DNA from: Eledone cirrhosa
Lineage: Eukaryota
Reading direction: 5' to 3'
DNA length: 64,000 nucleotides
Assembly: GCA_964016885.1 (NCBI GenBank)
Contig: OZ024742.1
Span: forward strand, 364,436,001-364,500,000
Positions 3,709-57,680 of this stretch are shown here, piece by piece (positions within the stretch are counted from its first letter, which is position 1; each line of letters begins with the position of its first letter). A model generated the notes under the pieces. It saw only the letters and a list, made by a program, of their open reading frames with translations. It was not told the origin of the DNA and ran no database searches. The position numbers and the translations under genes were made by a program.

Positions 3709-3836
3709 AAAGTTATATTTAAATTGTTGGGTTAACAACGAGTAAATATTTATAACTGATATAAAAGCACTCAACAAGTATTTGGAGTATATTTATGATA
3801 TTAAATAAATGGAAACTATATTTATAAAACCATATT

Positions 3837-3902
3837 TATTTCGTTATATATATTTCAGGGATATCATATTAACAATATGTTATGCCTTCTTCAGACAAAA
3901 TA
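3837..3902 (-). ncRNA. Type I hammerhead ribozyme in the 3' pLTR
   Basis: Minus strand: TATTTTGT-CTGAAGA-AGG..CCT-GAAA-TATATA-TA-ACGAAATA; 8-bp stem I, palindromic stem III. Confidence 0.7.
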
Positions 3903-5207
3903 CAATATAAACAGTCTTATAAATAAATAGATACGACATACCTTTCAATCACCTTGCATTTGGGAGGTTGATTTGGCAGTAAAAAATATTGTGGACAGTT
4001 GTAAAAAGAAAGAGAGAAAGAAAGAAAGAAAAAAAGAAAGAGAAACGAAGAAAAAGAAGAAATGCATGTGACTAAATAGAGAGATATAGAAAGATAGATA
4101 AAGAGAAGAACTTCATGTAACGAAATAGAGAGAAATATATATAGAGAGAGGAAAAAAGAAAGAGATAGATAGAGATAGATAGAGAAACTAGGAAGTTGAG
4201 TATCGGTTGATACATTTATTTATTTATTTATTTATTTATTTAGCTCTAGTATTAATGTAAAGAGAGATGTATGTAGTTAAGAGAGAAAATAGCCGTTATA
4301 TAGAGAGAAAAAAGAGAAAATGAAAAATAACCAGACATATACGAGGCAGAATTTAAAAACGCTATGTTTTATCCTGTAGAAAATATTAGTTCGTATAAAA
4401 CAGGCATTATAATGTAAATATCAGTATTCATGAATGAGACATGTATCTATAATGTGTGAAAAGTAATGATCTTATGTCTAGTTTTTAAAAATTCATATGT
4501 TTATATCATAATTATAAACAAACTCCCAATTCACACGAAAACATTCTCATTGTGCTATAAAAATTCAAGTATACATATATGTGTGTATATATACACATAT
4601 ATATAGAGTCTATATTAATTTTAACAATACTATTCTTGTCTTTACTCTACATGATTGTCGATCAAGCAGAAATAGAGAACAGATTTCAATATATAAATAA
4701 AAATAAAAATAAAAATAAAAATAAAAATAAAAATAAAAATAAAAATATCAGAGACAAGAAAATAAATAAATAAACAGAAAACTAAAACATTTAATATTAA
4801 AAATAAAAAATATTACAAAATATTAAAGAATAATAAAAATAAAACATAGTATGCCACGCAAATCGGCCACAGAGATCAGCCTTTCAAAGTTAATTGACAA
4901 TATATTGCCAAGTTCATCATAAGCATCAGAGTCGAAACAGATAAAACAAAAATTGTTTACCAAATCCTGTCTAGCAGAAATCATTCCAAAAGTTTAGGAT
5001 ACCCATTTGGTCTACATATGTTCTTATATTTAATATAGAAGTTTATCTAGTGTAAAGTTTAATTCGATATATTTGGAGCATCAGCTTTTAGGGTAGTTTA
5101 ATTATTCATGAAGAATGTTTTAATAAAAAGAATGTTTTAATAAAAAGAAGAAATCGAAAGATTTATCGGCTAGTTTCATAAATAATTACACATCAAATCA
5201 AACATAA

Positions 5208-7420
5208 CTACATTTTAAATTTAAATTTATATTTAAACGTTGAGTTCAATCTATGTCTGCAGCAACTGAATAAATTTGTCCGTAGATTAAGGGAATTTTT
5301 AGATTTTAGTATAAAGAATATCTCCTCCGCACAGAGGTCACATGTCTCAGAGGTTGAATTAAAAGGAATCCCCCTTGAAACTATATTCCAAGTCGTCGAA
5401 TATCTAACGTTATCATGCCTAAGTTGCCAGAGTACGCCTGATAGTGCTGTTGAAGATTTTTTGGATGGATCTGTGAAAGAAATCTTGTGGTTGTTATAGC
5501 GAAGTTTAAATTCCGTCGATGTAGAACCAACGTAGTTAAAAGAATTAACGTCCGTTTTAACATTACAGTTGTATATTATATTTTTAACTAAGCAGTTGTT
5601 ATTTAACGGACATTTAGATCTATCTCTACAGTTACATTTGTTAACTTGGATATTATTTATGCTATTATCGCTAGGTTTTAAGTTCCTGTTATTTATTCTA
5701 TTAATATTTTGCGCTAAATTTTTGGTGGATGAGTAGGTTAGTTTTATAGTATGTCTATTGAAAATTGAGTGATACCTATGTGTTCTAGGGAAGCGATTAT
5801 CGAGAGCTTTAAAAAATAGTTTAGCAATGTGGGTTTTAATGTTTAGTGAGAAAGGGGGGGCAAACCATATTATATTCCTAGTTCTATTTCTTTTATGGCT
5901 TTTGGAATTATTGTAATGCTTTCTATTATAGTTGTTAAGGTTGTGGCCATAATTAAAATGGTTGTTATTTTGTTTAATTTGTTTATCATTATCTATGTAC
6001 ATAATTTTATCACTAATCCTGCTCTAGCTAACGCTTCATTGTAATAATGGGCTTTTTCGTCGAAAATCTTTTTATTAGATGAGATTCTAGAGATACGTGA
6101 TTGAACAGAGTTTACTATAGTATTTTTAACAGATCTGGGGTGGTTAGAGTTAAAGCTGACATAGTTTAAGTTTTCATTCAACTTGTGAAATGGATAGTGA
6201 AGACACGTGTTGAAATTTAATGTTATATCTAGGAAGTTGACTATTCTATGGTTATTCTCAATTTCTATTTTTAGATTAAAGTGATTAAAAAATTGTGTAA
6301 TTTGTTTTCTTTTTCTATTTAGTTCAGAGTTATTATTATCAATAAGTAAAAGCATGTCATCTCTATATAAACCTCCGGTAGTACCAGGTATTTTCCTATG
6401 CAGCGAATTGATTAAAAATAATCCCACAAGGTCAGTTACCTGAGCTGAGTCGGATGATCCCATAGTAATGTCAAAATTGTTATCTCTATCTGCTCGGGTC
6501 CATAGTTGGTCATTAAATTCTATCAATGTTTTCCTAGCCGATAATATAATGTGCCTTTCATTGCTAGTTAGGTCTGTATGTTTGAATGCGTAATTTAGTG
6601 CCTTATTTAGTAGATTAGGGGTAATGGAAGAATAATAGTTAGCAATATCAAGTTGAATAAACTTATTATTATTGTTATATTTAATTTGCTTAAACCACTC
6701 AACAACCTCACCAGTTCCCTTCCACAAGCTCAGGTTAGGTAAACAACTCAAGTTTTTAATTTGCTGTATCACCCTGTCAAGAATGTTTTTGCTTAGTTTA
6801 CCCAGGTCCGATTTTGATGGTGCAATCAATCTGACTGGCAAGTCATTCTCGAAATTTCTCTTATGATCTTTCATATTGATCTTCGGTTTCCTGGGCACGA
6901 AAGGTTGTGTTCTGTTCTCAATTTCCAACTCGTGCATTATACAAGATGCCTCAACATTCATTTTCTCTAGCTCGGCCTTATCTGCTACCTTGTACTTTTT
7001 CCTCAGTTCTTTTAGTATGAGGCCATTATACATGTCTTTCTGCACTCCATAGAGGTTGTTGGTCTTGTCAGATTTTACCAAGATCTTCTCAGTTTTCTCT
7101 AAGCTCTCAATATTATCCCTAATGCCTTTCAGATATTCCTGGCCTTTGAAGTTTCTCTTGAATTTGACTCCTTGTATGATAGAAATTATATCGTTTTCAA
7201 AGTCAGATAAAAGTTTGTTGGGGGGTGGATTTCTTTTGGATTTGAAAACTTTGTTTAAGTCCGAGACATTTTCATTTATATTAGATTTATCAAAGTGGAA
7301 TGCTCGCCACCTGATTCTCCTTATAAAAGAGTCAGATTTATCTATTAATTGTTTTATAAAGTCTTTGTTTCTAGGTAGAAGTATGTCTTTTAAAGAGGAA
7401 GTAATCTTAAAGAATTCCAT
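5208..7420 (-). pseudogene. PLE reverse transcriptase / GIY-YIG endonuclease ORF with one frameshift near 6000; Naiad-like
   Basis: RT motifs KSDKT, QLDIANYYSSI, ITMGS, GLYRDD, NFLDIT; linker NIIWFAPPFS and CNCR..KCPL...CL; GIY-YIG IIYNC...YVGST...FKLRY..HK, CDLC, CRH. Clade assignment is from recalled motifs only. Confidence 0.9.
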
Positions 7421-7665: not shown

Positions 7666-7822
7666 CAATATAAACAGTCTTCGTTTCTCTTTCTTTCTTT
7701 CTTTCTTTCTCTCTTTCTTTTTACAACTGTCCACAATATTTTTTACTGCCAAATCAACCTCCCAAATGCAAGGTGATTGAAAGGCATGTCGTATCTATTT
7801 ATTTATACGACTGTTTATATTG

Positions 7823-7888
7823 TATTTTGTCTGAAGAAGGCATAACATATTGTTAATATGATATCCCTGAAATATATATAACGAAATA
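7823..7888 (+). ncRNA. Hammerhead ribozyme copy in the inverted pLTR
   Basis: TATTTTGT, CTGAAGA (7831-7837), GAAA (7869-7872), TATATATA, ACGAAATA. Confidence 0.7.
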
Positions 7889-7925
7889 AATATGGTTTTA
7901 TAAATATAGTTTCCATTTATTTAAT

Positions 7926-8057
<132 letters not shown>

Positions 8058-9788: not shown

Positions 9789-10933
9789 TACACATATATA
9801 AACGGTAAAAATGAAACGAAATTTCATTTCCCACTCTTAGTACGGCTGTTACTTAAATATAAGTATGTATACGTACATACATATATGTATACAGATGTAC
9901 AGTAGTATGTATATATATATATACATACATGCACACATATATATATATGTACGTATGGATTCACCGAACATTTATTATAATGATCGGTGTGTTTGTAAAC
10001 AAACATCTCGTATTATGTGTGCATGTATGTATATATATATACATACTACTGTACGTCTGTATACATATATGTATGTACGTATACATACTTATATTTAAGT
10101 AACAGCCGTACTAAGAGTGGGAAATAAAATTTCGTTTCATTTATTCCGTTTATCGTTTTCGGTGCACCCGGCCGATTAACCCACTCGATATGCAAATTGG
10201 GCTACTCAGCCGTTAATATACATAAGGTAAGTATATACGTTCAACAATCTGGCAGGAAGGTATACGTTGGTGACGATAGCTAATAAGCTTGAAACTAGTA
10301 CAGCGTTCCTTTGTCAGTGTTGAACAAACGAGCAACGATGGTTGCTAGACACTACGGCTCAATACGGGATGTTTGTTTACAAACACACCGAGCATTATAA
10401 TAAATGTTCGGTGAGTCCAGACGTACATATATATATGTGTGCATGTATATATATATATACATACTACTGTACGTCTGTATACATATATGTATGTACATAT
10501 ACATACTTATATTTAAGTAACAGCCGTACTAAGAGTGGGAAATGAAATTTCGTTTCATTTATTCCGTTTATCGTTTTCGGTGCACCCGGCCGATTAACTC
10601 ACTCGATATGCAAATTAGGCTTCTCAGCCGTTAATATGCATAAGGAAAGTATATACTTTCAGACGTTCAATCATCTGTCAGGAAGGTATACGTTGCTGAC
10701 GATAGCTAATAAGCTTGAAACTAGTACAGCGTTCCTTTGTCAGTGTTGAACAAACGAGCAACGATGGTTGCTAGACACTACGGCTTAATACGGGATGTTT
10801 GTTTACAAACACACCGAGCATTATAATAAATGTTCGGTGAATCCATACGTAAATATATATATATGTGTGCATGAATGTATATATACATACTACTTTACGT
10901 CTGTATACATATATGTATGTACGTATACATACT

Positions 10934-12787: not shown

Positions 12788-12974
12788 GGGGGATTGGCAG
12801 TAACAGTAGAACGTCGGACCCCATGCTTTCCAGCATAGTTACGCCCCTTTACGGTCTGAGTTCACATGCCGCCAAGGTTAAATTTGCCTTTCATCCTTAC
12901 GGGGTAGATAAAATAAAGTACCAGTAATGCACTGGGTAATTGCTGGCCTTGTGCCAAAAGTAGAAACAATTATT
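12788..12974 (+). mobile_element. SINE family A
   Basis: Matches the family consensus. Confidence 0.85.
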
Positions 12975-14644
12975 TCCGTTAAAATAAATCATCACCACTA
13001 TTAACTGCACTTGTATCCTTATAGTATGTTGTTCGATGTGTTTCACAGGAGCCTTAGATAATATCACTCAATTCATCCATTCATCAATACAACCCAATAA
13101 CATCTCTAATAATTGATACTACATTCTGACAAGTTAATATATTAAGGGTCACAACCACACATTCCCCTTTTTTGTAAATATGTTTCTTGTTTGACATTTT
13201 TGTCTTAATTCTAACTACAACATTATATGATCTCTATGTCGAGAGCCATACTTGAAGTCTCACGTAATTTCTTCAAGGAAACCTAATTCCATTTTGTATT
13301 TCCGTGGTTCATTGAGGCCATATTTCTTGATAGTAATATAAGGACGCCGCAATGACGTTTGTAGTATCGTGGGATTTCTGAAAATTCAGATGTGAGCCAA
13401 TTTTTCAAAGAGAAATAAAGAGTGAGGATGTGAAAGAGAGATATACTGAACTGGTTTAATATTTTTCGTACTTGATCAGATGAAAGCCAAATTTGACAAT
13501 GAAGGGATTTGATTTGAGAACACAGAAACTCGGAGAAAACTTCGGGAAGCATTTCTTCCGACACCCTAACGTTGTAAATTCCCTCCATTTTCTTGTATGA
13601 AACCCATCATTAGTTTTCACCTCTCCAATTCTATTGCTTCTATTTTTTCGTAGTTCTATCCTCTGTTGAAAATTTACAATATATGCTAAAAGTTTAAAAC
13701 TCATTTATATAATTAAATAAATGTCTATGTCATTGTACTTTTTTCTTCTCGTCTATTTTCACACATACTCCCACACAAATTTTTAATTGAGGCCCCAAAT
13801 CAGCAATTAATTAGTAAAGTCAATTAATTAGTAAAGCCAATTAAATTACCCTCAACTTACAAACATTGCACCCGACTCCCTTCATTCGCCAGACGACGAA
13901 TCGGGATGTAATTACTGTCACAAAGACTACAAAAGTTAAAATATATTAATATATACAGTAACATAGGAAATGTGCTAATGTTTTAACAAGTACTGTAGAC
14001 CCATTGTTTTCATTAATTCCTCGACATTCCTAGTCTTTGTTACCCAGAGAATTCTCTCATTTCTTCTGTAAATATTGTTGAGGTTATATAGTAAGTCTCT
14101 TGATAACAAACTACCTGTAGTTTCTCTTGTTTCTACGATATAAAACTGTATTTATCTGAATACCTTCCAGAATGCGATTATGTAAAAATCGTTGGTAAAT
14201 TATGTTCAAAAGACCAGTATAATAAAGCGTACGTTAATTATATATCTAAATCTTTTCAAATTCCTGATTATTTACAAATAACGTTAAAATGATTGTTAGT
14301 GACTAGGCTTCAGATATACAGGAACAAACGAAACAAATTTTGATGTGGTAAAGAGAATTAGACCAATTATTTATACAGCAAAATAACAAGATTTCTGAAA
14401 GAACAAATCTACATAGTCCGTAATAAAATATCTGAACCAAGATTAAAGAATGTCAGTGAGGAATTATTAAACGATTTAGAAGTGTCGCTTTAAAAATAGT
14501 TTCCAACATATATAGAATGCGTAAGGTTGTTAGATTGTTGAATAAATGGCCTTCCAGCAATATTTACGTTTCATTACGTTTTATTACGTTTTAACTTTGC
14601 CCATAAATGTATATATATATATATAAATATATCTATATAAATAT

Positions 14645-15243: not shown

Positions 15244-16159
15244 CGAAGGAAATGTGGTAAGGAACCAGGTGGACCATAACGCACCAAAGTACTCAATATA
15301 TATATATATATATACATATATGGGCAATATATACCATATTCTATATTTATTATAGTCTTATGTTTATTTTTCTGAAAACGTGTTAAGTAAAATGAGAAGA
15401 TTGTTTGGGTTGAAATTATAAATAAATACACACGTGTGTGTTTGTTTCACCGTTTTTTTAGTTCTAATGACGAGTATCCCAATTGTTAGAACAAAAGGAC
15501 AGGTTGCTGGTGAAATTACAACGTGACTGAGCATTCTACAAACACCTACACGCTTAACGAAGTGATCAAGGATATTCAATGTGATGCAATGAGAGATAGG
15601 GCTGGCTCTTTGAACTAAATATACAACTCATTTTTGCATATTTAATGGAGTGTAACAACGTGAAATTTTGCTCAAGACGGAACCCGCCAAAGTGAATCGA
15701 ATTCACGTCCATTTGATTGTGAGCTGAACACACTAGACACCTAAATACATATGTTCCTTCATTTCTAGGAAATATCACATAACAGATATCACCATTTCTA
15801 TTTATGAATACGTTTCTTTCAATAGTCAAATAAAGCGAAATAAACGCGATTGTATTTCTTTCGCTTGGGGAGTGCTTTGACAAGTTTTTCGAAAAGTATA
15901 TATCTAAGATATAGAATGGTGGAATCGATATGTCACTGTTATATCATCTATAGTTGTACTAAGTTCAATATATTAGGAGAATGTCAGAAAATTAAGCATA
16001 TATGCTGTGGGTGTGGGGGGAATAAACGGCATTTGGTTTCACTGTAGACTTGCACCTCATTGAATTTCCGTTGATAACTGCACGTACGATGTTTTGTTTT
16101 ATCTTTAAAGCGGTTTGCAGAGCAAACGCTGATATACATCAAACGACATCTGCTATAAT

Positions 16160-16689
16160 AATTGTTTCTACTTTTGGCACAAGACCAGCAAATACCCAGT
16201 GCATTACTGGTATTTTATTTTATCGAACGCGTAAGGCTGAAAGGCAAAGTTAACCTTGGCGGGATTTGAACTCAGATTGTAAAGGGACGTAACTATGCTG
16301 GAAAGCATGGCGTCCGACCTTCTACCGATACTGCCAATCCACCGCCCATCTGCTATAATGATAATCATCACATGGCTTTTTTTCGCAATTACTAGTCACA
16401 TCAGGGAAGAGACCATACCATCACAGCATGATTCGCTTCTCCTTACTATATATGATCACAGAAACTTATATTTTACAAACTGTATTTACTCTTCATTATT
16501 TTGGGATTGGCAGTATCGGTAGAGGGTCAGATGACATGGTTTGACGTATAGAGTTACGGCCCTTACCATTCTGAGTTCAAATCCTGCCGAGGCTAACTTT
16601 GCCTTTCATCCTTACGGGGTCGATAAAATAAAGTAGCAGTAATGTACTGGTGAATTGCTGGCCTTGTGCCATTAGTAGAAACAATTATT
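16160..16689. mobile_element. Two head-to-head SINE family A copies (16160-16348 minus; 16503-16689 plus)
   Basis: Both match the consensus; they are inverted and about 155 bp apart. Confidence 0.85.
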
Positions 16690-17764
16690 TTGTTGTATTT
16701 TTGCGGATCAACATTAGTTTTCTACGATTCTATTAACATTTCATATTTGTCTCATTGAATTGCAGATAAGATAAAGATCTCTCGGTGTGATTTAAACTCG
16801 TTCTGGAAGCAATAAAGTAAAGTGTATATCCCGATATATTAACAATCCTGTTAAGAAATGTCTGTTATGATAATAATAATGATATAATAATAATGATTTG
16901 CGACATAGGTTGTACCTAATGAAATATCCCGCTCTGACCAAGTTCGTTGTATCCATGTCAATACTGAAGCATGTTTTAACCCTTAATATCCTGTAATAAT
17001 TTAGCAGAAAACATCTAAAAACACCTTTGTTAATTCAAATGTTTCATACATTTTTATTGGTGGAGACATTGTTGTGGAAATTTGCGGTATCGGAAGAATA
17101 ATGACTTTAGATATTTCTGATGCAATCATATAGTTTTCAAGACTGTCCCTTAAATGTTCTCATCACCAACGTGCATAAGAATATGTTTATTAACAAAAGA
17201 AATTTTAGCCTGATAGTGAAATTTAGAACCCTAAAAAAATGGAAAAAGATGAGTATTGATCAATACTCATCTTTTTTCATAACTGAGAGGGTTCCAAACC
17301 CCACTATCAGGCTAACATGTCTTTAGTCAAAGATATGGCGAAAGCTTCTATTTCTAATTTCAATATGGCTCCTTGTTTCAAGACATGCCTGATATTTATT
17401 AACGTTGAATTTAAATTCAGTTATTAATATTTAAGTAAATTGATGAATTTAAAAGAAATCCTGTATTTCTTAGGAAATATTTACTGGGTAATATAATTAT
17501 ATTATAATTCTATTATAATTATATTATAATTATATTATAATTATATTATAATTATATTATTTTAAATGTATTAGAAATAATATAACACATAATGTATACA
17601 GACTAATGTTTTCTGTAATTGATATATGTTCGTTTTTTTATTGTTGTTGTCCATGTAATTATTATTATTGTCATTGATGTCGTTGTAGTTGCTTTTCAGT
17701 ACGCATGTTATGAATATTATAATTATAATATTTCAGCAATAACAATGATAATAACGATAATAAT

Positions 17765-18153
17765 AATGGTTTCTTGATTAGAAACAAGGCCATCAATGTT
17801 GTCGGAGGGGGAAAAGTCGATTAAATCAATTCCTGTGCCTGACAGGTACTTTATTTCATCGACTCCGTAAGGATGAAAGACGAAGCTAACCTCGAGATTT
17901 GAAATCAGAACGTAAAGTGACGTAACTCTATGCCTCGAAGCAAAGCGTCCGACGCTCTACCGATACTGTCAATCCACCACCCTAATAATAATAATTGTTT
18001 CTACTTTTGGCACAAGGCCAGTAATTATCCCAGTACATTACTGGTACTTTATTTTATCGACCCCGTAAGGATAAAAGGCAGTTAACTTCGGCGGGATTTG
18101 AACTCAGATCATAAAGGGAGGTAACTCTATGCTTCAAAGCATAGCGTCCGACC
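17765..18153 (-). mobile_element. Two tandem SINE family A copies
   Basis: 17765-17982 (variant tail) and 17993-18153 match the consensus. Confidence 0.8.
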
Positions 18154-18577
18154 CATAACATTACTACAAATATATATATTTAGCTGTATTACCTACTTCT
18201 GTGACATTATACATACATATAATTTTAAATCAGTTTACATTTGTCAACTTTATAATTTTCAACAATACACGTTATGTGTGATGGAGGTTAATCTTCTGTG
18301 GAAGATCCTAATCAGGAAATTAACGTTCAATTGGATGATCATTCTACTGGCATGTGTAATATTTCTCAGGGAGATTCAGTTTGACTGTGTGTAACAAGAA
18401 GATCTCCAGTCCCAATGAAGCGCTTCCAAACAGTTTCCATCCACATAATTCCCTTTACATGACGTCAGACTATTGTAAATGGTATTTTCCCACGGTGTCC
18501 ATAAAGTCGGATTGAACCTCGATCCTCACGATGGCGATTCGAAGTTAACAATTAGGCCACTCCACAGCCACTTATGT

Positions 18578-18610
<33 letters not shown>

Positions 18611-18614
<4 letters not shown>

Positions 18615-18772
18615 CGAAGGAAATGTGGTAAGGAACCAGGTGGACCATAACGCACCAAAGTACTCAATACTTGAGGTAGTAGAGTGGATAATAGGAACCA
18701 GTAAGACCCCGACAGCTGAGCTCAAGCCGTTTCGAAACGGCTTGAGCTCAGCTGTCGGGGTCTTACTGGTTC

Positions 18773-18776
<4 letters not shown>
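18611..18776. mobile_element. PLE pLTR end with a perfect palindrome (18692-18775) centred on TTTCGAAA
   Basis: TAGGAACCAGTAAGACCCCGACAGCTGAGCTCAAGCCGTTTC|GAAACGGCTTGAGCTCAGCTGTCGGGGTCTTACTGGTTCCTA; same family as 23870-23995. Other stubs at 15241-15298, 25198-25337, 32441-32486, 63825-63985. Confidence 0.85.
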
Positions 18777-18835
<59 letters not shown>

Positions 18836-20111: not shown

Positions 20112-20206
20112 TATTGTACATTCACCCATCTATTTCATAAAAGTTGTTTATAAAATACTTGTGCAAATTTAAACGTTAATAACGTTGGAGAATTTCAGTG
20201 TAAATT

Positions 20207-20399
20207 ATTGTTTCTACTTTTAACACAAGGCCAGCAATCTTCCCATTGCGTTACTGGTACTTTATTTTTTTTTTACCCCGTAAGGATGAAAAGCAAAGTT
20301 AACCTCGGTGGTATTTGAACTCAGACCGTAAAGGGATGTAACTCTATGCTGCAAAGCACGACGTCCAACCCTCTACTGATACTCCCAATCCACCGCCCT
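20207..20399 (-). mobile_element. SINE family A; a diverged relative lies at ~20990-21150
   Basis: Matches the family consensus. Confidence 0.85.
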
Positions 20400-22029: not shown

Positions 22030-22220
22030 CATGTAATTGGCGCCGTTATTAATGTGATGGGTTAAGCCATACATGACAACTCACTTCCAAAATCGTACTT
22101 CGGATTCTCTAAGAAGAATTTTAACGCTAGGATTTATCAGCACAAATATAAATTTATGAGATGTCAAAGAAATGTTGCTACTGCTTTATCGAAATATACA
22201 TATGACCTTTCAATGTAAAA
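22030..22220 (+). pseudogene. Decayed PLE GIY-YIG remnant (absent from the ORF track)
   Basis: Frame from 22081 reads SLPKSYFGFSKKNFNARIYQHKYKF...ATALSKY, comparable to YVGSTSTEFKLRYNNHKISF...STALS in ORF 5208-6002. A decayed HHR-like motif lies downstream at 23047-23083. Confidence 0.6.
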
Positions 22221-23159: not shown

Positions 23160-23164
<5 letters not shown>

Positions 23165-23995
23165 CCCAGCTTACTTAGGTATATATATCTCTTTTCTTTT
23201 CCTCTTTGTCTTCTTCTTCCCCATGTCTCATCCTTTCACTTCCTTCCACCCCGTATTTTCTTCCTCGTCTGCTTTTCCCCTTCGCCTACCCTGATGCAGC
23301 CCATCGGGCCTCTGTAGCATCAGTTTCCCCACCCCTGTAATCTTAAGATGGAATTGGCTGAATACGTTTTACTAACTACTTATAGCAGACGTGTTAAACC
23401 CCTTTAATTCTCTATCAGTTCTGGTACTACTCAATTTTTACAAGTTTTTTCTATTCTCAACTTATTAACCTGTAATTGTAAGATAGCATTGTGATTTTTT
23501 AAAATTCATTTCTCACTATCTAATTTTATATATTTTTTTATTTATTTCTATTATCTTTCATTGTCTCCTACTCCAATTCGATTTACCTATTCTATAACCT
23601 CCCTCCTCCACTTCATACTCTATCCTCAGAATCTGCTGTATACATATCGCTTTCAAACCTTGACCGCTCCTGTCACTCCCCTATTGTTCTACAGGCAAGT
23701 TCAACCACCCCTACCTCCCACCAAATACCATGATAGACTTATTTGTGTTTACAACAAATTGTAAGCACCCTCTTGACAACTACAATATTCCCATATAAGG
23801 AAGTACCCCCTTGAAAAGTTCGGCTATTTATTCACCAGGCTAAAAATTCTAATTTAGTCCAGAAATAGCCGTCGAAACGGCTTGAGCTCTGCCGTCGGGG
23901 TCATACTTTTTCCTATTTCCCACTCTACTACCCTAAGTATTGAGTACTCTCGTCCGTTATGGTCCATCTGGTTCCTTACCACAATTCCTTTGTTA
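23160..23995 (+). mobile_element. PLE 3' UTR/pLTR (~830 bp), solo copy between (AT)n tracts; second copy at 38815-39637
   Basis: High identity to 38815-39637, which directly follows a GIY-YIG C-terminus. Confidence 0.85.
23797..23915 (+). ncRNA. Extended type I hammerhead ribozyme with U3-A8 core, predicted cut after GUC at 23896
   Basis: CCCC-TTGAAAA-GTTCGGCTATTT...AAATAGCCGTC-GAAA-CGGC TTGAGCTCT GCCG-TC-GGGG; stem I extends by AAGTA/TACTT. Confidence 0.8.
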
Positions 23996-25181: not shown

Positions 25182-25335
25182 CTTTCTATATATATATAGG
25201 AACGAGTAGGACCCCGACGGCTGAGCTCAAGCCGTTTCGACGGCTAATTCTGGACTGTTACCCACTCTACTACCCTAAGTATTGAGTACTTTCGTGCGTT
25301 ATGGTCCACCTGGTTCCTTACCACATTTCCTTCGT

Positions 25336-26177: not shown

Positions 26178-26755
26178 TTACGGTAGTGTGTGCTCCAGAC
26201 TGATGTCCTTGGTCATGGGATTCACTACAAGTAATATAAATGTAGAAGATACTGTTATTCCGAGAAAAACACCGAAGAAGAAGCGATCCATAACTTTAGC
26301 TATTTCCTGCCATTCTTGAATGAATTTCCTTTCTACCATACATCGGTCATTCATTGCGATGATATACCGAAGATATCGCATCATTTCGTCATCAAAGGAA
26401 TTTTCTGGGGTAAGTATTGAATGTGTTTGTGCGCTAACACCGCTTGAACTTGAGCAATCCGTTATCTTTTCATGGCCAAGACCGTTGCAGCGCACTCCGC
26501 AATGACTGTGACGATCTGAGCCGTACGATTCCCTTGAGAGTTTTTCCATTTTGTTATGGAGCGACGAATGACAATAGCGGTTGGGGATAGTGTCCGTCCA
26601 TTCCATGCAAAGGACCCTTGAGAGTAAGTAGGAGAATTTACGTAGCCAATAAGGTGGTCCGGATTGGAAACTGCCCCGGTGATGAAGGTTTAGTATGAAA
26701 ACGGAAAATACCACGGATAGCGCACTCATAGCCATTATAACGGTCAGGTATATAC
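26178..26755 (-). CDS. Last coding exon (M3, cytoplasmic loop, M4, stop) of a nicotinic acetylcholine receptor-like Cys-loop channel subunit
   Basis: GIYLTVIMAMSALSVVFSVFILNLHHR (M3), PPYWLRK (MX), QEWQEIAKVMDRFFFGVF (MA-M4). Acceptor TTTCTTTGTATTTTGCAG ends at 26756 (phase 1). The upstream part of ORF 26178-26942 is intronic. Confidence 0.92.
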
Positions 26756-26900
26756 CTGCAAAATACAAAGAAAAATATATGAAATAGAAACCAAATGTGT
26801 AAACTTTGTGAATATATAAATGCATGGGTGTGAATAATTCATGAATGGGTTTAATAGTGAAATGTATTAACAATAGAATGTAATATTGCATGCATATGTA

Positions 26901-27060
26901 TTTAATATAGAAATGGCTTCTACAGGACCAGAACTTTTTCATTCGAAAGAAATCATTGAATGAAACAATTCTAGTTTTGTAGAAGCCATTTCTATATTAA
27001 ACTTGACGTTTCCACTCTACTAATATATTGAGTACCTTACTTACTGTGGTTACCCTCGTT
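26901..27060. repeat. ~100-nt hairpin (24-bp perfect arms 26901-26924 / 26978-27001), probably a fold-back pLTR
   Basis: TTTAATATAGAAATGGCTTCTACA / TGTAGAAGCCATTTCTATATTAAA; GAAACAATTCTA HHR-like remnant; ATTGAGTAC terminal motif at 27027. Confidence 0.7.
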
Positions 27061-28429: not shown

Positions 28430-30099
28430 CCCAAAAATAGTAAGCGAAAGGCGTAACACTGACGCCCACAGTAGACATATAGATAGAGGCAACATAGGGG
28501 ACGAAATAATGGGCGGGCAAAACCCGAGACGGACCCCAGATCCAAAACACATCCACGCTGCTACTCACACACGAAAGTACAAGACTAGATCTAAGGCCGT
28601 TACATGGTTTAACGCGCCGTATTCTAAGCATGAATGCAGCAATATACCAAGCCTCTATTTCCGAGCGTTAGATGAATGCTTCCCGCCGTCGAACAGATAC
28701 CACAAGATCTTCAACCGCCACACAGTGAAGTTTTCCTTCTCCACAGCATCTAACATGGCCGACTACATGGCCAAAACCAACGGGGCGAAGATGGGGAATC
28801 TCGACCATCAATCGCGGCGGCGGAATGACCGTCCATCGGAGCACGGAGGGCCCCTCGCAGACCGGTCTTCCAGCCACAACCCGGCCCTCCCGGCGGCCGC
28901 CACGCCCGCGGAAGACGATACACTCCAACGCCGGGCGGGAATGAGTGTCGAAAGAGATATCACCGTGTCGGCGCAACAACACCCTGAGAATCCGGGAGAG
29001 GGCCATAGCAGATCAAGGGCCAGGCGTTTGAAATGAACAACATAACGACAGAACGTACAACTGCAGAGAAGATGCCTGACGAAGGGCCTGGTATATAAAT
29101 GTGTGGTTAGCACGCACAATATAAAGCGCACCTACATCGGCGCAACATCCTCGACCTTTACATCGCGGATGTATAACCACACGAACTCTTTGAAGGACCG
29201 GAGTAAGAGGCACTCTTCTAGGCTGGTGGACCTGGTGTCGGACTTGAAAGACAGAGACACCCTGTATGCCCTTGACTGTAGAATTGTTCGGCACACGAAT
29301 ACATACTCGGCTGGAAACAGAAAGTATAGGCTATGCCTATACGAGTCCATGGAGATGGTCAGACTGAAGGATGAGGTGGTCAACTTGAAATCGAAAATAA
29401 TCATGACGTGCAGACACCAGAGAAGGTGCACACTCTCCGCATGGAATCCACCGGGAAGCCCAGGCTAAAGGCATGCGACGGAGCATAGACCGACCAGAGC
29501 TGGGAAACATGTTGAAGGGATCAGAGACCATATCCTGATGACTATATATGCCCTGTGGGGTAAACCGAAATAACCCGAGATGCACCCGACTCTGCACGTC
29601 ACCCTAGGCAAGAACATCACCTGAGCCGGGACAGGTTGACCCGGATTCCATGACTTTCAGTCAAATGCATTACACCTATAGGACACTATACCTCAACCAC
29701 AGTGACATGCTCCAGTATGGCCGGTCCATGCACCCCCATGCATGTGTATATTTTCAATAGAGAGTCCATATTCTCCACATATTCCATCTTGTAACACATA
29801 TTATATGTTCTGTATATCTCATGCTTCTCCTGTGTACTATCTCATACACATACACATTCCTCCTTCTTCATTTTTATATATCTCTATGTGACGTTATATC
29901 TATAATTTTAATATATTGCACGTTTATTTTTTATATGTGTATATATGTATGCGTATATATATATATTCCTGTTCCGTATAACCATGTCCATTACGAGCTG
30001 AGGATCCGCTAAGTTGAAACAATTGTTCTCGATATGGTGAACTAACTGTTGTGTAACCACTTCTACTTAACTCGTCCCATGGACTGAGTGCTCTACCAC

Positions 30100-32439: not shown

Positions 32440-32526
32440 GAGAAAGTATGACCCCGACGGCAGAGCTCAAGCCGTTTCGACGGCCCACGCACGCCTACAA
32501 AGATACACACACACACACGCGCGCAC

Positions 32527-32572: not shown

Positions 32573-32838
32573 GTATAAATATATATATAACCCGTAGAGC
32601 AAATAAATATTCCATAGCTAATTTTGTATTTTATTTTGTTTATAGTTTTTGCTTATTGTATTTGCTACTCTCTGTGACCGTCTAAATTATATCTTTTCTA
32701 CCTCTCCTGTTAGGCCAGTTGCCTTTTAATGAGAGTGGGTAGCAGTAGAAATATCTTTACTGTAACATACAACTTATCACCTACATTCAAATCTTTCCGA
32801 CGAAATGCAGTATTTAATGTATTGCTGGCTATAATAAT

Positions 32839-33234
32839 AATTGTTTCTACTTTTGGCACAAGGCAAACAATTACCAGTACATTACTGGTACTTTATTTTA
32901 TCGACCCCGTAAGGATGAAAGACAAAGTTAACCTCGGCGGGATTTGAACTAAGATCATAACGGGCCCTAATTCTGTGCTGTAAATCATGACGTTCGACCC
33001 TCTACCGATACTGCCAATCCACCACCATGCATGGCATAATGATAATAATAATAATTGTTTCTACTTTTGGCACAAGGCCAGCAATTACCCAGTGCATTAC
33101 TGGTACTTTATGTTATCGACTCCGTAAGGATGAAAAGCAAAGATAACCTCGGCGGGATTTGAACTCAGAATGGAAAGGGCCGTAACTCTATGCGTCAAAG
33201 CATGGCATCCGACCCTCTACCGATACTGCCAATC
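32839..33234 (-). mobile_element. Two tandem SINE family A copies
   Basis: 32839-33027 and 33053-33234 match the consensus. Confidence 0.85.
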
Positions 33235-38549: not shown

Positions 38550-39634
38550 CCATATAAACTACAATCTCACTTGGAGCTTACTGTCCAGATCTAACTCTTA
38601 CACAGGAGGACGCCGTCCGTTTAACTTATGCTCGGAGGAAACATTACAAATGCTGTTTTCGAAGGACCAACTCCTAAACAAGAAAGATGAACTGGTAACC
38701 GCATGCAAACACAGATTGCGTAGGATTTACCTCGCCCTAAAAACCCTATAACGACCCGGGTGGGTAGACAAGGGTTGATACACCCCCCCACACTTGCCGA
38801 ATAAGTTAGGGGAAACCCCAGCTTACATAGATAAATGTATCTCTTTTCTTTTCCTCTTTGTCAACTTCTTCCACCTGTCTCATCCTATCATTTCCTTCCA
38901 CCCCCTATTTTCTTCCTCGTCTGCTTTCCCCTTTCGCCTACGCCGATGCAGCCCATCGGGCCTTGTAGCATCAGTTCCCCCACCCCTGTTATTTTAAGAT
39001 AGAATTGGCCGAATACGTTTTACTAACTACGTATAGCAGATGTGTTAAAAACCCCTTTAAGTTTGTATCTGTTTTGTAATTTCTATAAGTTTTTTCTATT
39101 CTCAACTTTTAACCTGTAATTGTAAGATAGCATTGTGATTTCTTTATTCATTTCTAACTATGTAAATTTATATATTTTTTTATTTATTTCTAGTATCTTT
39201 TATTGTCTCCAACTCTCTTTCAATTTACCTATTCTATAACCTCCCTCCCCCACTTCATACACTATCCTTAGAATCTGATGTATACATATCACTTTCAACG
39301 CTTGACCGCTCCACTAACTCCCCTATTGTTCTACAGGCAAGTTCAGCCACCCTACTCCCCACCAAATGCCATGATAGACTTATTTGTGTTTACAACAAAT
39401 TTTAACCAATCCTCTTGACAACTACAATCTTCCCATATAAGGAAGTACCCCCTTGAAAAGTTCGGCTATTTATTCACCAGGCTAAACATTCTAATTTAGT
39501 CCAGAAATAGCAGTCGAAACAGCTTGAGCTCTGCCGTTAGGGTCATACATTTTCCTATTTCCCACGCTACTACCCTAAGTATTGAGTACTCTGGTGCGTT
39601 ATGGTCCATTTGTTTCCTTACCACAATTCCTTTG

Positions 39635-39637
<3 letters not shown>
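38550..39637 (+). mobile_element. PLE 3' fragment: GIY-YIG C-terminus + pLTR with a partly decayed U3-A8 HHR (39441-39550)
   Basis: INYNLTWSLL...FNLCSEE...LLNKKDELVTACKH; UTR homologous to 23160-23995. Confidence 0.85.
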
Positions 39638-39982: not shown

Positions 39983-40112
39983 GTGATTTTTTTTTTACAA
40001 AATGAAAAATAACCGAGGTGTCCTACAAGAGGGAAAGTATAAAGGAAAAAAAATGAAATCGAAAATGCAACTGGAGTATTATTTTTAAAAATATATATAT
40101 ATTTATTTGGTT

Positions 40113-40150
40113 CCTTTACCGGTTTCGCAGTTCTGCTGCTTTTCAAAAGG
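40113..40150 (-). ncRNA. Minimal hammerhead ribozyme with U3-A8 core; inverted copy at 43721-43756 has U3/U8
   Basis: Minus strand: CCTT-TTGAAAA-GCAG CAGAA CTGC-GAAA-CCGG-TA-AAGG. Confidence 0.78.
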
Positions 40151-40678
40151 TGAGTTGAGATGGAGGGTCTGTGGTTTTTCTCACATCTGGTTGGTCACTG
40201 AATGTTACTTGTTTTATATGGAAAAAGTGGCTCGAAATGCCAGGTTTTTCGACAAGTAATTTGATTGGTTGGTCAATAATTATAATAAATTTCGCGCCAG
40301 TTCGCGTTACAAAGTTCTTCAAACAAGGGGGGGGGGGTGTCACAGGTTGTGTTTTCATATATGAGTGTTTGAATTTCTTTTTACTTTAAAAAAATGAGGC
40401 TCACGAAGGCTTTTTTTTAAATAAACGTAATTTGATTGGTTATAAATGAAATTATGGCTGTCACGTGAATAAGTTTTCATTAAATTTTCGCGCCCTTATT
40501 TGGAAATCTATTCTGTAGCCTTTTTAGAGAATTTTATGACAAGTAAAAGATAATGGTCAAGAGAAATTGGATGGGAGAATTGTTCTGGTTTAGGGAATAT
40601 GGTTAGTTCGCTGGTGTGTCAGAATTCAGATTTTCTATTGAATAAAGAAAGTAAAGATATGTATGTTTATTTGTGTGC

Positions 40679-40749
<71 letters not shown>

Positions 40750-41639
40750 AATTTCTTTTTACTTAAAAAAAGGGGGCTCACGATTTTTTTTTTAATAAAC
40801 GTAATTTGATTGGTTAAAAATGAAATAATGTCTGTCACGTGAACAAGTTTTCATTAAATTTTCGCGCCCTTATTTGGAAATATATTCTGTAGCCTTTTTA
40901 GAGAATTTTATGACAAGCAAAAGATAATGGTCAAGAGAAATGGGATGGGAGAATTGTTCTGGTTCAGTGCATATGGTTAGTTCGCTGGGGTGTCAGAATT
41001 CAGATTTTCTATTGAAGTAAAGAAAGTAAAGATGTGTATGTTTATTTGTGTGCTTGTGTGCTTGTGTGTGTGTGTGTGTATTGGAAGATGATTCTATTAG
41101 TAGAAATGCGGGAGGGCGTTGTGTGTGTGTATATGGGTGGTATGTGTGTGCGTGGGGGGGGGGAGTATGTTAAGATGGAGAGAATATATATATTTTGTGT
41201 GTGTGTATATATGTGTGTAGGAAAGTGATTCTATTAGTAGAAATGGGGGAGGGAGTTGTATGTGTGTGTATGGGTATTATGTGTGTGGGAGTATGGTTAG
41301 CATGTTAAGATGAAGAGAATATATATATATATTGTGTGTGTGTGTGTGTGTAGGACAATGATTCCTTTAGTAGGAATATTTTTGAATGAACATATTTTCC
41401 TTACTTATTCGTATTTGTACTGTTGTATTGTCAGTGCAAACGTATGTTAAGGTTTATTTAGTTCGGGTTTTTATTTTCTAAAGTAGAAGGTGTTATGTGT
41501 GTGTGTATGTATCTGTTTGGATGGTTAGCATGTTATGGTGTTGATATAATGTATATTAAACCATATTTAATGCTGGTCTATATTTTTGAATAAACATATT
41601 TTCCTTATTTATTCGTATTTGTTCTGTTGTATTGTTAGC

Positions 41640-43010
41640 GCAAAGGTAAAATCGGAAGACTTGGAATTTGTGTGGTCTTATTACTTGCGCATATGTCTAG
41701 ATATGCGCTTAGTGGTATCTGTCTCGTGGTTGGATCTCGTAATTGTTGGCGATGAACTGTCATTCTGTTTCTAAGTGTGAGTTTAGTTTGTCCTATATAA
41801 TCTTCATTGCATCCTTTACATTTAATGGCATAAACTAGATTTTTTGATGAGCATGTGAAGTGATTTTTACAGTAAAATGTTGTCCTGATTTAAATGTATA
41901 CGTGTTACCTTCAATGAGGTGAGTGCAGGTTCCACAATTAGAGCGACCGCATTTTCTGACAGTAGGTTGTGGGTTTGTGGTAGGTAATTTGGCATTGGTG
42001 AGTAATGTTTTCAGTTATTTCGGTTGTCTTTTGCTTTTGATTATTTTGTGTATTTCAAGGGCTTTTTTCATTCTTGGGTTTTGTTTTAGTAGTGGGATGT
42101 TCTTGTGAATAGTGTTGTAAGCTTCCGCATTTTTGGGGTTGTGTGTTGAGATATATGATAGAATATTGGACGTACCTCGAATTTGTTTCTGTTTTCGTAA
42201 TTCATCAATGCCTATTGCTTTAGCTCTTTCTATTCCATTATTTATTAGTGGGTACTCTCTTTCGAGTAGAATTTCCTTTAATTCTTGAAGTCTTTTATTT
42301 CGCGTTTCATAATTGGAGGCAATTGTGCAAATTCTTCTTGCTAGGTTAAAAGGAATGTTCGTCTTCGTGTGCTTTGGATGGTTGGAGGTGAATAGCAGGT
42401 ATTGCTTGGAATCTGTTGGTTTGTATTGTATGTCAGTTTCAATATTTGTGTATTTTTTAAAGATTAAGATGTCCAGAAATGGGAGTTGAACTTGGCTGTA
42501 TTCCATTGTGAATTGGATGTGGTTATTGATGCCGTTTATTAAGTTTTTGAAATCCTTCAGTTGGTCGAGTGTGTGGGACCAAAGAATGAGACAATCATCC
42601 AAGTAGCGTTTCCAATTCTCTGATAAATATTTGTGGAAGTTCAATCCGTATTTTGATTTGGACTGTTCATATATCTGGACTTCTAAGTATGCCATGACTA
42701 AGTTGGCATAAGTTGGAGCGGCTTTTGTACCCATCGCAGTCCCCGATATTTGCTTGTAAGTACTGCCATCGAAATCAAAAAAGTTGTTCTGTAAGATAAA
42801 TTTTAATCCCTCGGTGATGAAGCTTTTTTCTATTCTGTTAGGTATCTCATTGGGATATTGCTCTAGCCAGAATCCTATTGCTTCTAGTCCGTATTGGAGT
42901 GGGATCGTTGTGTAGAGATTCACTACATCGAAAGACCCAATAATAGTGTCGTTGTTGACATGTTTGGGGAGGTGGTTTAAGAGGTCCAGATCGTCTCTTA
43001 CATGGCTTGG
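41640..43010 (-). pseudogene. PLE RT + GIY-YIG, 5'-truncated, with in-frame TAA at 42015
   Basis: SFDVVNLYTTIP, QISGTAMGT..APTYANLVM, WKRYLDD, LPFLDI, YKPTD; after the stop KCGRSNCGTC...NLVYAIKCKGCNEDYIGQT. Confidence 0.92.
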
Positions 43011-43341
43011 TATGTGCACAGACACACATAAGCACACAAATAAACATACATATCTTTACTTTCTTTATTCAATAGAAAATCTGAATTCTAACACCCCAGC
43101 GAACTAACCATATTCACTGAACAAGAACAATTTTCCCATCCAATTTCTCTTGACTATTATCTTTTGCTTGTCATAAATTTCTCTAAAGAGGCTACAGAAT
43201 AGATTTCCAAATAAGGGCGCGAAAATTTAATGAAAACTTGTTCACGTGACAGCCATAATTTCATTTATAACCAATCAAATTACGTTTATTAGGAAAAAGC
43301 CTTCGTGAGCCCCCTTTTTTAAGTAAAAAGAAATTCAAACA

Positions 43342-43415
<74 letters not shown>

Positions 43416-43888
43416 CACACAAATAAACATACATATCTTTACTTTCTTTATTCAATAGAAAATCTGAATTCTGACACACCAGCGAACTAACCATATTCCC
43501 TAAACCAGAACAATTCTCCCATCCAATTTCTCTTGACCTTTATCTTTTTGAAGATCTTTGTAACGCGAACTGGCGCGAAATTTATTATAATTATTGACCA
43601 ACCAATCAAATTACTTCTCGAAAAATCTGGCATTTCGAGCCACTTTTTCCATATAAAACAAGTAACATTCAGTGACCAACCAGATTTGGGAAAAACCACA
43701 GACCCTCCATCTCAACTCTACTTTTGAATAGCAGAAGATCTGCGAAACCGGTAAAGGAACCAAATAATAAATATATATATATTTTTAAAAATAAGACTTC
43801 AGTTGCATTTTCGATTTCATCTTTTTTTGTTTTTGTGTTCTGTTATTAATTCTGGCAATATTACGCAAATATGACCCTCCCCAAGTAT

Positions 43889-44899: not shown

Positions 44900-44955
44900 C
44901 CTGTGCCGTCTGTAATGTTTTCTTGATGTCAGCCCTTGTGGCCAATAAAGAAATC
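44900..44955 (+). mobile_element. 56-bp 3' stub of the Tx1 element immediately downstream
   Basis: Nearly identical to 50195-50251. Confidence 0.85.
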
Positions 44956-44957
44956 AT

Positions 44958-50251: not shown

Positions 50252-50274
50252 ATTATTATTATTATTATTATTAC

Positions 50275-55572: not shown

Positions 55573-55749
55573 ATTATTATTATTATTATTACTATTATTA
55601 TTGTGCACAAGACGAAATCCTTTTCTACCATGAAGCTATCGACATAAAAGTATTGAGAGATTTGCAAAGAATCCGTCTCTCTGAGTTGCTCAGCCTTATT
55701 CTGCCACGTGATGGGACTGCCAGATATTGTAAACCTTGAAATGACCAAA

Positions 55750-55953
55750 AATTGTTTCTACATTTGGCACAAGGCCAGCAATTTCAAGAGAAGGGGAAAA
55801 TCGACCCCAGTGTTTTACTGGTACTTAATTTTATCGACCTCGTAAGGATGACGTGCAAAGCTAATCTCGGCAGAATTTGAAATCAAGCCATAAAGGACCA
55901 TAACTCTCTGCTGCAAAACATGGTGTCTGACACTCTACCGATTCAGCCAATCC
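55750..55953 (-). mobile_element. SINE family A variant
   Basis: Matches the consensus, with the variant tail also seen at 17765. Confidence 0.8.
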
Positions 55954-56127
55954 AATGACCAATGGTAACATGGTTTTTTTGTATTAATCTGGTGACAGGC
56001 TCTTTCCCCGAAGGAATTGAAGGTACTGTATGGAAAGGATGGTAAACCTGATATATTTTAGCGAACTCAGCCGAAAGAAACCGTAAAAGAGAGATTCCAT
56101 TTCATTGAAGAATATATTAGTTAATAT

Positions 56128-57246
56128 ATGTTTCTTTTATTTGCCACCAGGGCATCAAAAGTGGGACAAGTACAATGGGGGGAGTTTAGATAACAAGGCG
56201 TCCTCAATAGGGAGGAGGCAATAACAAAATATAAAAATAAACTAAAATATAACAAAAAATAAAATTTATAACAAAATCCTCAATAGAGAGGAGGCGCCTT
56301 GGGGGGTCGCACACACTCCCGAAAAAAAGTGTGCAACCCTTCTCCTGAGGAGCACAGAGAGGGGGTGTTCCCTTGATCTTTCATCTTCCTCACCTATAGT
56401 CTGATGTAGAGTGAAGGCCCATTCACACGGGCCATTCTCGCCACTTTCACCCACCTTTCATAAAAACGACTGGGGTGCAGCACCTCTCTCTCCATCCTGA
56501 GGTACAGCACCTCTCTCTCCATCCTGGGGTGCAGCACCTCTCTCTCCATCCTGATCCTTCTTCCGAAATGATATCGGAAGAAACGGACCAGTTGTTGGCC
56601 AGAGAGAAAGGTGTCTGACCTCAGTCCTTTCAGACGCGTCCACCATACAACCTCTATCACCATGGATATTACGCACAGAAACACCGCCTCTCCTTCATTT
56701 TTGAAGGGGGGCGGCGGCTTGATCATTACAATAGACTCGGTGGTCAACCGGATCGGTCCCACCCTTGACAGCAGTGTTCGACATAGCCCCACAGATCAGC
56801 AATGCCCGAGCAGTGTACCAATGCGTGTGCAACGGTTTCCTCGTCGCACACGCATCTGGGACAGATCTTTTTGGCGGGGTCCCTACCCGGGCGCCCGTGT
56901 CTGTAGAGTTTTTCTCGAACGGGTAGAGCCCCTCGGTAGCACTGCCAGGCCAGGGACTTCTGTTCTACCGAACAGGCTGGCAAGTTCGTCTTCCTCCATG
57001 TCTAGGGCTTCTCCGAGGGCGTCGTCGCACCTGCTGCGTACCAGCCCTCTATAGAATGTTGCGGTGGAGTCTCCACTGATAACCCGATCCGCCTGCCAGA
57101 GGGCGATGAGCGCCTGGGCACACTCAGTGTGCCAGGCGCCTAGTTTTCTCGGTCTTTGTTTGACCCAGGATTGCAGCTCGGTGAGTGAGACGAGTCTGGG
57201 AAAGGTTCGTCTCACAAACGAGGCCCACACCGGTTGACCGGTGAGG
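56128..57246 (-). mobile_element. 5'-truncated Tx1-like family B copy with a triplicated 27-bp segment (RMEREVLHP) and 18-bp flanking direct repeats
   Basis: Homologous to 34470-35450; GAATAT(A/C)TTAGTTAATAT at 56110-56127 and 57246-57263. Confidence 0.88.
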
Positions 57247-57294
57247 AATATCTTAGTTAATATTGGCGGTGTAACACATGAGGTAATATGTTTG

Positions 57295-57575: not shown

Positions 57576-57680
57576 ACGTCGTTAAGATCAAGTAGTGCCT
57601 GTGTTTAAATCTTGTTTACGTGGCGAAAAACCTTGCACTGGTCAACTAAACCGAATATTTCTATGTTCGCGCATATACAC

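Follow-up and report, generated by a model that had tools for sequence, protein, structure and literature searches.

The window analysed here, a stretch of 64,000 nucleotides of the Eledone cirrhosa genome (GCA_964016885.1, contig OZ024742.1), contains at 23798-23914 of its forward strand a motif that resembles a hammerhead ribozyme, and raises the question whether this motif cleaves RNA and what its cleavage would do for the mobile element in which it lies. The original prediction described it as an extended hammerhead with a U3-A8 core and a long stem II in the pLTR of a Penelope-like element (PLE), which could cleave as a monomer and is accompanied by further copies in the window.

The motif is a part of an 830-nt insert at 23164-23993 (+), which has (TA)n on its flanks, contains no ORF, and corresponds to a 5'-truncated solo pLTR (3' UTR, hammerhead and a 77-nt tail) of a PLE. 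Among its 30 closest copies in the 3.0-Gb genome that was searched, several have the end of an endonuclease ORF (GIY-YIG) upstream or an ORF start downstream, and a protein search gave 148 scored matches, many of them with reading frames open for about 784 codons. In one tandem array, of period 3,531 nt, each unit carries a ribozyme and an intact 717-aa ORF, which starts about 190 nt downstream of the predicted cut. The assignment of the hammerhead to a Penelope pLTR is borne out by this array of pLTRs and by the relatives flanked by the GIY-YIG end and the ORF start. The exact sequence of the stem III - tail junction is present at 23,250 places of the genome.

The 717-aa protein, with YRDD at 348, VIY at 591 and YIG at 606, appears to combine a reverse transcriptase (RT) with a GIY-YIG endonuclease at the C terminus in a single ORF, an assignment based on motifs and homology (2,049 homologues). 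Its best database relatives are 38-54% identical to it, and searches of Pfam and PDB with this protein gave no hit. The pLTRs are arranged in tandem and in inverted orientation, and a tail may be present, as in EN+ PLEs. Several marks of the Hydra clade, as given in PMC8557442, can be recognized: RWR at 37 (a conservative change from RWK), DKT at 117, the absence of GxKF/Y, the CxCX5C linker at 572, CxxC at 670 and CxH at 698 around the E and N of EN, and insertion into (TA)n. These motifs, together with the colinearity of the protein with Hydra-1_Obim in a by-eye comparison, place the element in the Hydra clade of PLEs. Its unit of 3,531 nt exceeds the length usual for the clade (<3 kb), and the canonical hammerhead core occurs only in old sister families; both traits are described as usual but non-defining (PMC8557442). 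A non-LTR retrozyme was rejected on the grounds that the tandem units encode the 717-aa protein and that short inserts lack the 5' half of the ribozyme. Metagenome relatives (8 loci, 34-48% identity) are too distant for alignment, and their hammerheads, where found, are canonical and short.

The hammerhead fold in the window is real. A type I hammerhead, with three helices around the core and the open ends in stem I, is the minimum-energy structure of the motif folded alone (z -2.2, and z -2.65 in a second computation), and all the helices that had been claimed are present at their positions. The 5' strand of stem I (23798-23810, +) consists of a distal helix (23798-805), which pairs with 23904-14, and of the proximal CCCC (23807-10), which pairs with GGGG at 23897-900. 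The catalytic core U3 U4 G5 A6 N7 A8 A9 (TTGAAAA, 23811-23817) is followed by stem II and loop II (23818-23873): the G10.1-C11.1 pair, a 2x1 internal loop, 9 bp formed by CGGCTATTT at 23821-29 and AAATAGCCG at 23863-71, and a loop that was thought to have about 40 nt but measures 33 nt and includes an inner hairpin. The stretch that follows (23874-23896) comprises GAAA at 23874-77 (G12 A13 A14 A15.1), the 5-bp stem III (A-CGGC / GCCG-T closing TTGAGCTCT), with the palindrome GAGCTC (23884-89) in its 9-nt loop, and U16.1 and C17. The last base of the GUC triplet is 23896, which sets the predicted scissile bond at 23896-23897 (+), where a class of fold-back inserts terminates. All the conserved hammerhead positions (U4 G5 A6 N7, A9, G12 A13 A14 A15.1, U16.1 H17) are present, and the 3-8 pair of the window copy is a Watson-Crick U-A.

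Computed folding of the window copy at 23797 gave stem III a pair probability of 0.98, in agreement with the expectation of a stem III stable in a monomer. This stability is not distinctive, as stable stems III are also described for fungal and protist PLE hammerheads; those of Hydra-clade ones have 3-4 bp. The dimerisation that had been proposed for the GAGCTC loop is favoured in silico (self-dimer -26.9 vs. 2 x -6.5 kcal/mol for monomers), and this loop is kept in all families, with hardly any variation between the oldest and the youngest one. No tertiary contact between loops I and II is obvious in the computed folds. No hammerhead was found among the Rfam matches listed (150 of 167 in one search, both of two in another); the long loop and the variant core may lie outside the hammerhead models. 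A competing 6-bp hairpin with a CGAA loop (23866-23882), which the stem II 3' strand and the stem III 5' strand can form, would sequester G12-A14; it prevails in certain subfamilies as well as in RNA that begins at +1. In computed folding it is favoured over the hammerhead in representatives of subfamilies C (C3.A8) and E (U3.G8); the best hammerhead folding among non-window representatives is that of the youngest subfamily.

Between the window subfamily and the youngest subfamily the ribozyme is 84.9% and the tail 88.3% identical, whereas the adjoining 3' UTR is 58.3% identical (shuffled control, 56.6%), a contrast which indicates that selection acts on the ribozyme region. In 27 aligned representatives U4, G5, A6 and A9 are invariant, G12-A15.1 do not vary while N7 does, and 88% of helix cells pair. 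Double changes concern stem I.4 (C-G / G-C), the 3-8 pair and one cell of stem III, that is 3 of 12 pairs, with 17 cells against 7.5 in shuffled alignments, although the number of pairs was reached in 251 of 500 shuffles. As the bulge of stem II was wrongly aligned by MAFFT when young families were compared with old ones, stem II beyond two pairs was counted separately; its position II.4 is G-C in 12, G.U in 7, A-U in 7 and unpaired in 1 of the 27 representatives, which gives the series A-U, G.U, G-C, and at II.2 an A-U pair is restored in the youngest subfamily. Conservation and covariation of core and stems across genomic copies are thus present, with few independent events, since the 27 representatives are related sequences; old copies have in addition undergone CpG decay.

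The 3-8 pair has a more complex history than the clean compensatory change to U3-A8 assumed originally. Among 7,278 exact genomic matches to the degenerate core pattern CCCNTGANNANNTCGGCTAT (none to the reversed pattern), all four bases occur at N7, as they should at this position, only 105 lack A8, and 1,775 have C3 with A8, i.e., a C3.A8 mismatch. Thus, A8 is fixed in the window family while position 3 toggles between U and C. Neither is U3-A8 a novelty in Penelope elements, with about 1,300 Schistosoma hits published (PMC4209133) and U3-A8 in natural hammerheads already in print (PMC3088659). An older subfamily has a U3.G8 wobble, counted in 22 of 31 rows at loci retrieved with one of its own sequences as query, and in still older sister families of the same architecture 14 of 27 rows have C3-G8 (CUGAUGA). 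A tree of 905 ORF columns, excluding the ribozyme and rooted at the midpoint, which is backed by branch lengths alone, is a ladder that leads from U.G to U-A (the window subfamily), then to C.A, and again to U-A (the youngest subfamily), the C.A stage spanning several strongly supported nodes; a second tree on a shorter piece gave the same order. A single C.A clade (9 rows) was rejected (p-AU 9e-5), and so was a single U-A clade (20 rows), in tests on 34 rows, one duplicate locus being dropped, with groups defined by core state after the trees had been inspected. The order of the ladder and the rejection of single clades indicate that the 3-8 pair changed one step at a time, passing by way of wobble and mismatch, and that the mismatch lineage still transposed. 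We found no report of an amplified C3.A8 hammerhead lineage in the open-access full-text literature. A shifted register, in which position 3 would pair with G1.1, was set aside, as it costs one stem I pair and G5, and the old CUGAUGA families keep the register. Four near-identical old-family copies, about 26.4-26.9 kb apart, have a UUGACGA core; its C7-G8 dinucleotide makes a CpG route from G8 to A8 possible.

The main feature of the locus, missed by the original prediction, is a pile-up of copy 5' ends inside loop II, at 23856-23857 (+). In a 664-kb sample, composed of the window and of 10-kb stretches (8 next to it and 52 at even spacing), 24 of 33 copies start at -46 to -25 from the cut, and 0 of 33 start within 5 nt of it. 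Genome-wide patterns found 4,375 copies that begin at the A of AGTCC (23856) and 6,753 that begin at 23857, counts which are lower bounds (at least 11,000 copies together), as the patterns exclude some flanks. The AGT at 23856, in the context TTAGTC or TCAGTC, ranks with the best-conserved portions of loop II, and this context resembles the arthropod initiator. A hand count of 100 listed matches gave, for the base that precedes the A, 62 G, 23 C and 15 A, T being excluded by the pattern; one base downstream, with A excluded, the respective counts are G 10, C 36 and T 54 among 100. The excess of G over C before 23856 is significant (p about 3e-8, in a test that used 35 C). An untemplated 5'-end G of LINE-1 and SVA copies has been taken as a copied cap (PMC4859970). 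Among the first 43 listed places viewed in context, 9 of 26 G cases are explicable by an inverted arm instead of a cap, while others, such as GGAC-G-AGTCC or cases in which C follows the arm, are inexplicable in this way; since inverted-arm readings exist and many junctions at -40 show palindromic microhomology, the raw number of G overstates the cap signal. The depth of contigs rises about ten-fold at 23856-57 in two other runs, which consist of contigs, maybe of the same organism, and carry no information on expression, start or strand. A 3' splice site (TTTAG/CCAG) at 23856 is not favoured, as copies begin with AG and have varied upstream flanks. We consider it quite likely, judging from genomic copy ends, that a capped transcript starts at 23856-57, at the A of TTAGTC. 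A search of open-access full text found no report of a transcription start inside a PLE hammerhead. At the other side, copy 3' ends of the 664-kb sample cluster at +20 and near +97 from the cut (23916-23993, +); following the interpretation in PMC11167929, they may be read as two reverse-transcription starts bounding the tail.

A rarer class of copy ends, visible only by genome-wide patterns and not in the 33-copy sample, falls on the predicted cut. For one and the same downstream string, starts at the cut number 320, compared to 63 at -2 and 48 at -3. The contexts of the former read (TA)n, a 20-nt inverted arm, a few extra bases, and GGGGTC with the tail, and about 14 of 20 are fold-backs ending at, or at most one base from, the cut. 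In 209 fold-backs both arms stop at the scissile bond with 0-2 bases between them. Among 100 listed junctions, assigned to classes by hand and with a few loci counted on both strands, 36 have both arms exactly at the scissile bond and extra, mostly A/T bases between, 20 are blunt, in 15 one arm falls short by a base, 7 remained unclear and 22 run past; symmetric junctions at -2 and -3 were represented by one locus each. The blunt CCCC/GGGG junctions could equally have originated by CG microhomology. For the +13 to 0 stretch, 25 of 100 listed junctions are at the cut, and any other junction has at most 4 rows. Two control patterns were set aside: of the 382 matches at '+1', about 70 of 100 rows were one-G deletions in full copies, and of the 242 at '-1', 56 of 100 were blunt fold-backs at the cut. 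In all, about 200-400 fold-back inserts stop at or beside the scissile bond, many with untemplated bases. A free RNA 5' end at G1.1 would be their simplest cause, and they are likely a footprint of in vivo cleavage. We found no report of genomic inserts ending at the cut of a PLE hammerhead in open-access full text.

The cut expected after 23896 thus coincides with a class of copy ends, whereas efficient cleavage of the monomer is doubtful: the cut class amounts to about 0.9% of uncut copies (209 / 23,250), and about 99% of the copies that span the site derive from uncut RNA. Taken by subfamily, the cut rate amounts to 1.56% for the youngest one (U3-A8), to 0.41% for the group with mostly C3.A8 cores and to 0.31% for the window U3-A8 subfamily (hand counts on 100 rows each, confounded by age and palindrome loss), and does not simply follow the 3-8 pair.

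The reading that we favour, and regard as fairly probable, is that the motif is a Hydra-clade pLTR type I hammerhead, a weak self-cleaving ribozyme whose loop II holds the transcription start. Pol II would start at 23856 and proceed through the ORF into the next pLTR, and the transcript would have the ribozyme's 3' half alone at the 5' terminus and a complete ribozyme at the 3' terminus. Reverse transcription would prime on nicked (TA)n at the two internal sites, +20 and +97. Priming on the 5' pLTR copy would lead to run-off at the capped end and to abundant 60-140-nt inserts, while priming on the 3' pLTR copy, where an uncut ribozyme must be crossed, would give long copies. Cleavage would sever the priming sites from the body and leave only tiny fold-back inserts that end at the cut. 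Cutting would then oppose full-length transposition, the ribozyme would usually have to stay uncut, and the weakened cores (U.G, U-A, C.A at 3-8) may be tolerated for this reason; residual cleavage may trim 3' ends or serve as a brake. In vitro, insertion of an Anolis PLE proceeds from uncut RNA and is unimpaired by ribozyme mutations (PMC11167929). The window copy, being devoid of an ORF, would have the whole ribozyme only in read-through RNA.

Three other readings have to be weighed. The classical one, which the original prediction shared, assumes an efficient monomeric ribozyme that cuts tandem transcripts to unit-length transposition templates. It agrees with the occurrence of one ribozyme per 3,531-nt unit of the tandem arrays, with the stable monomer fold of the window copy and with the reported activity of a fungal PLE hammerhead as a monomer (PMC4209133), but the 5' ends of copies are set at 23856-57 and not at the cut, and their 3' ends lie 20 and 97 nt past it. 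These 3' ends and the 23,250 read-through copies argue that the templates were uncut, and we hold this reading to be the least probable. That the ribozyme is vestigial, i.e., does not cut and is kept as an internal promoter and protein-binding site, seems distinctly unlikely, though the crossing of the uncut site by about 99% of copies and the position of the C3.A8 lineage (1,775 counted copies) on the trunk to the youngest subfamily are in its favour, as are the single 3-8 changes that abolish cleavage by the Anolis PLE ribozyme (PMC11167929). In such a case the ends at 23897 would result from stalling of the reverse transcriptase or from microhomology; however, stalling ahead of stem III should place the ends one base further on, and junctions with extra bases have both arms at the scissile bond itself much more frequently than at the positions next to it. 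Moreover, the 5' half of the ribozyme lies upstream of the inferred start, yet its core and pairing are kept, and U3 was regained after the mismatch stage.

The third alternative is a split or dimeric ribozyme, in which the 5' half, provided by the 3' end of the transcript or by a second RNA through GAGCUC, would pair with the capped 3' half and remove a 41-nt leader, which would make it a switch for decapping or circularisation. Every transcript would indeed bear a bare 3' half and the cut site at its 5' end, the palindromic loop hardly varies among old and young families, a self-dimer is computed to be favourable, and dimer cleavage has been published for PLE hammerheads (PMC4209133). In addition, cut-site fold-backs are present in the mostly C3.A8 group as well (12 of 100 listed rows), for which complementation by RNA of another subfamily is conceivable. 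On the other hand, for the complete 3' copy a local fold within one molecule is preferred, and genomic ends are silent on which copy was cut. With respect to the inferred start, the palindromic loop occupies +29 to +34, a position at which a downstream promoter element would be expected, so that it may be conserved for another reason. We consider this reading unlikely. A broader version, with a promoter inside the hammerhead and RNA ends or two RNAs forming a split ribozyme that sheds either the capped leader or the priming sites, is a tentative proposal of somewhat higher but still low probability. If a split ribozyme were at work, the element would have a built-in switch between translating, copying and discarding its RNA, and the genome would preserve a fossil record, countable by subfamily, of templates that were cut and of those that were not, across the core alleles C-G, U.G, U-A, C.A and U-A.

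The U3-A8 core and the element family are already known, while for the copy-end signals and the C3.A8 lineage no report was found in open-access full text. With the Hydra-clade PLEs described in PMC8557442 the Eledone family shares the C-terminal GIY-YIG, RW[K/R], DKT, CxCX5C, CxxC and CxH motifs, the (TA)n targets and the pLTR hammerhead. The Hydra rows listed in S2 of that paper all have C3-G8, a loop 2 of at most 10 nt and a loop 3 of at most 3 nt, in contrast to the 33-nt loop II, the 9-nt palindromic loop III and the U3-A8 / C3.A8 cores of the Eledone family, which also differs from published Hydra PLEs in its 3.5-kb unit and 1.1-kb 3' UTR. The Schistosoma Cercyon PLE hammerheads (PMC4209133) have in common with it U3-A8, a long helix II, G10.1-C11.1, a palindromic loop 3 and the location in the pLTR; they are described as lacking helix III and requiring dimers, unlike the Eledone family with its 5-bp helix III, extended helix I and inferred start inside loop II. 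The PAc element (Poseidon) of Anolis carolinensis resembles the Eledone family in two internal reverse-transcription starts bounding the tail, AT-rich targets and uncut RNA as the main template (PMC11167929). In that study no RNA reads terminated at the cut, whereas genomic fold-backs of the Eledone family end there, and the PAc ribozyme overlaps the start codon, which in the Eledone family lies about 190 nt past the cut. In Drosophila virilis Penelope, the transcription start and promoter are in the pLTR (PMC2377424), as would be the case in the Eledone family. The Penelope start is 46 bp upstream of an intron, the end of which maps to helix I (PMC4209133), so that the whole ribozyme is transcribed from it, in contrast to the start inferred within the ribozyme here. 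In natural U3-A8 hammerheads the 3-8 pair covaries to U-A and activity in vitro is described, and the examined text of PMC3088659 contains no amplified C3.A8 lineage such as that of the Eledone family. The cleavage of PLE hammerheads in vivo, and its purpose, has been called 'still a mystery' (PMC7761336) and 'still unclear' (PMC8557442). Copy ends offer a DNA-only read-out of RNA start and cut site, applicable to any young PLE family, and the dated series of 3-8 alleles with a transposing mismatch lineage permits a direct test of whether cleavage is helpful, harmful or irrelevant to transposition.

The other copies announced for the window exist, but none of them is an intact ribozyme. The second one, placed originally near 39441-39550, belongs to an insert at 38551-39635 (+), in which the last 70 codons of the GIY-YIG ORF (38551-38760, 83% aa identity) precede a pLTR copy (38816-39635). 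Its hammerhead (39432-39572) is decayed, with 7 changes, including C17U, G1.1A, G15.3A and a stem II mismatch, and its hammerhead fold has a probability of 0.000 in computed folding. The partial copies (18692, 25196, 32440, 63835-63968, 2928-2980) are real; all are devoid of the 5' half, so none of them alone can be a ribozyme, and they may be explained as run-off copies from internal priming near the RNA 5' end, which agrees with internal initiation as demonstrated in PMC11167929. They comprise a short fold-back insert of the youngest subfamily (18608-18779, 3' half only), a short inverted pair with one arm starting exactly from the inferred +1 (25196-25335), a short insert with the 3' half only (32440-32484, -), one of an older subfamily with the 3' half and tail (63835-63968, -), and a decayed insert (2885-2980, -) that belongs to an old sister family, in full copies of which the core is the canonical CUGAUGA.

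Several neighbouring features of the window deserve mention. An unrelated second PLE comprises an RT fragment (42018-43055) with GIY-YIG directly downstream, inverted repeats (40054-41046 / 43017-43819) and minimal hammerheads at 40095-40160 (-) and 43705-43775 (+), with a U3-A8 core UUGAAAA and a palindromic ACCGGU stem III in one arm and UUGAAUA in the other. A frameshifted Hydra-like Penelope ORF (5238-7405, -), 42% identical to the studied family, is surrounded by inverted repeats (3788-4037 / 7688-7937), and a descriptor search found no hammerhead beside it. Decayed Hydra-like endonuclease fragments of 33-40% identity lie at 28587-29465 (+) and 22090-22209 (+). Hammerhead-like motifs with canonical CUGANGA cores and a short stem III are present at 10696-10730 (+), within a repeat family at 10095-10849, and at 58990-59053 (-). 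An exon of a neurotransmitter-gated ion channel (Pfam PF02932) occupies 26181-26996 (-), and the studied element is located on the opposite strand, about 2.2 kb beyond it. A LINE-like element (44949-57581) consists of tandem and inverted copies with endonuclease/exonuclease/phosphatase and zf-RVT domains, and interspersed repeats of about 185 nt, a SINE-like size, are found at 1270-1460, 12788-12975, 16157-16343 and 16505-16690, with further copies at 17827-18154, 20202-20394, 32836-33234 and 59518-59704.
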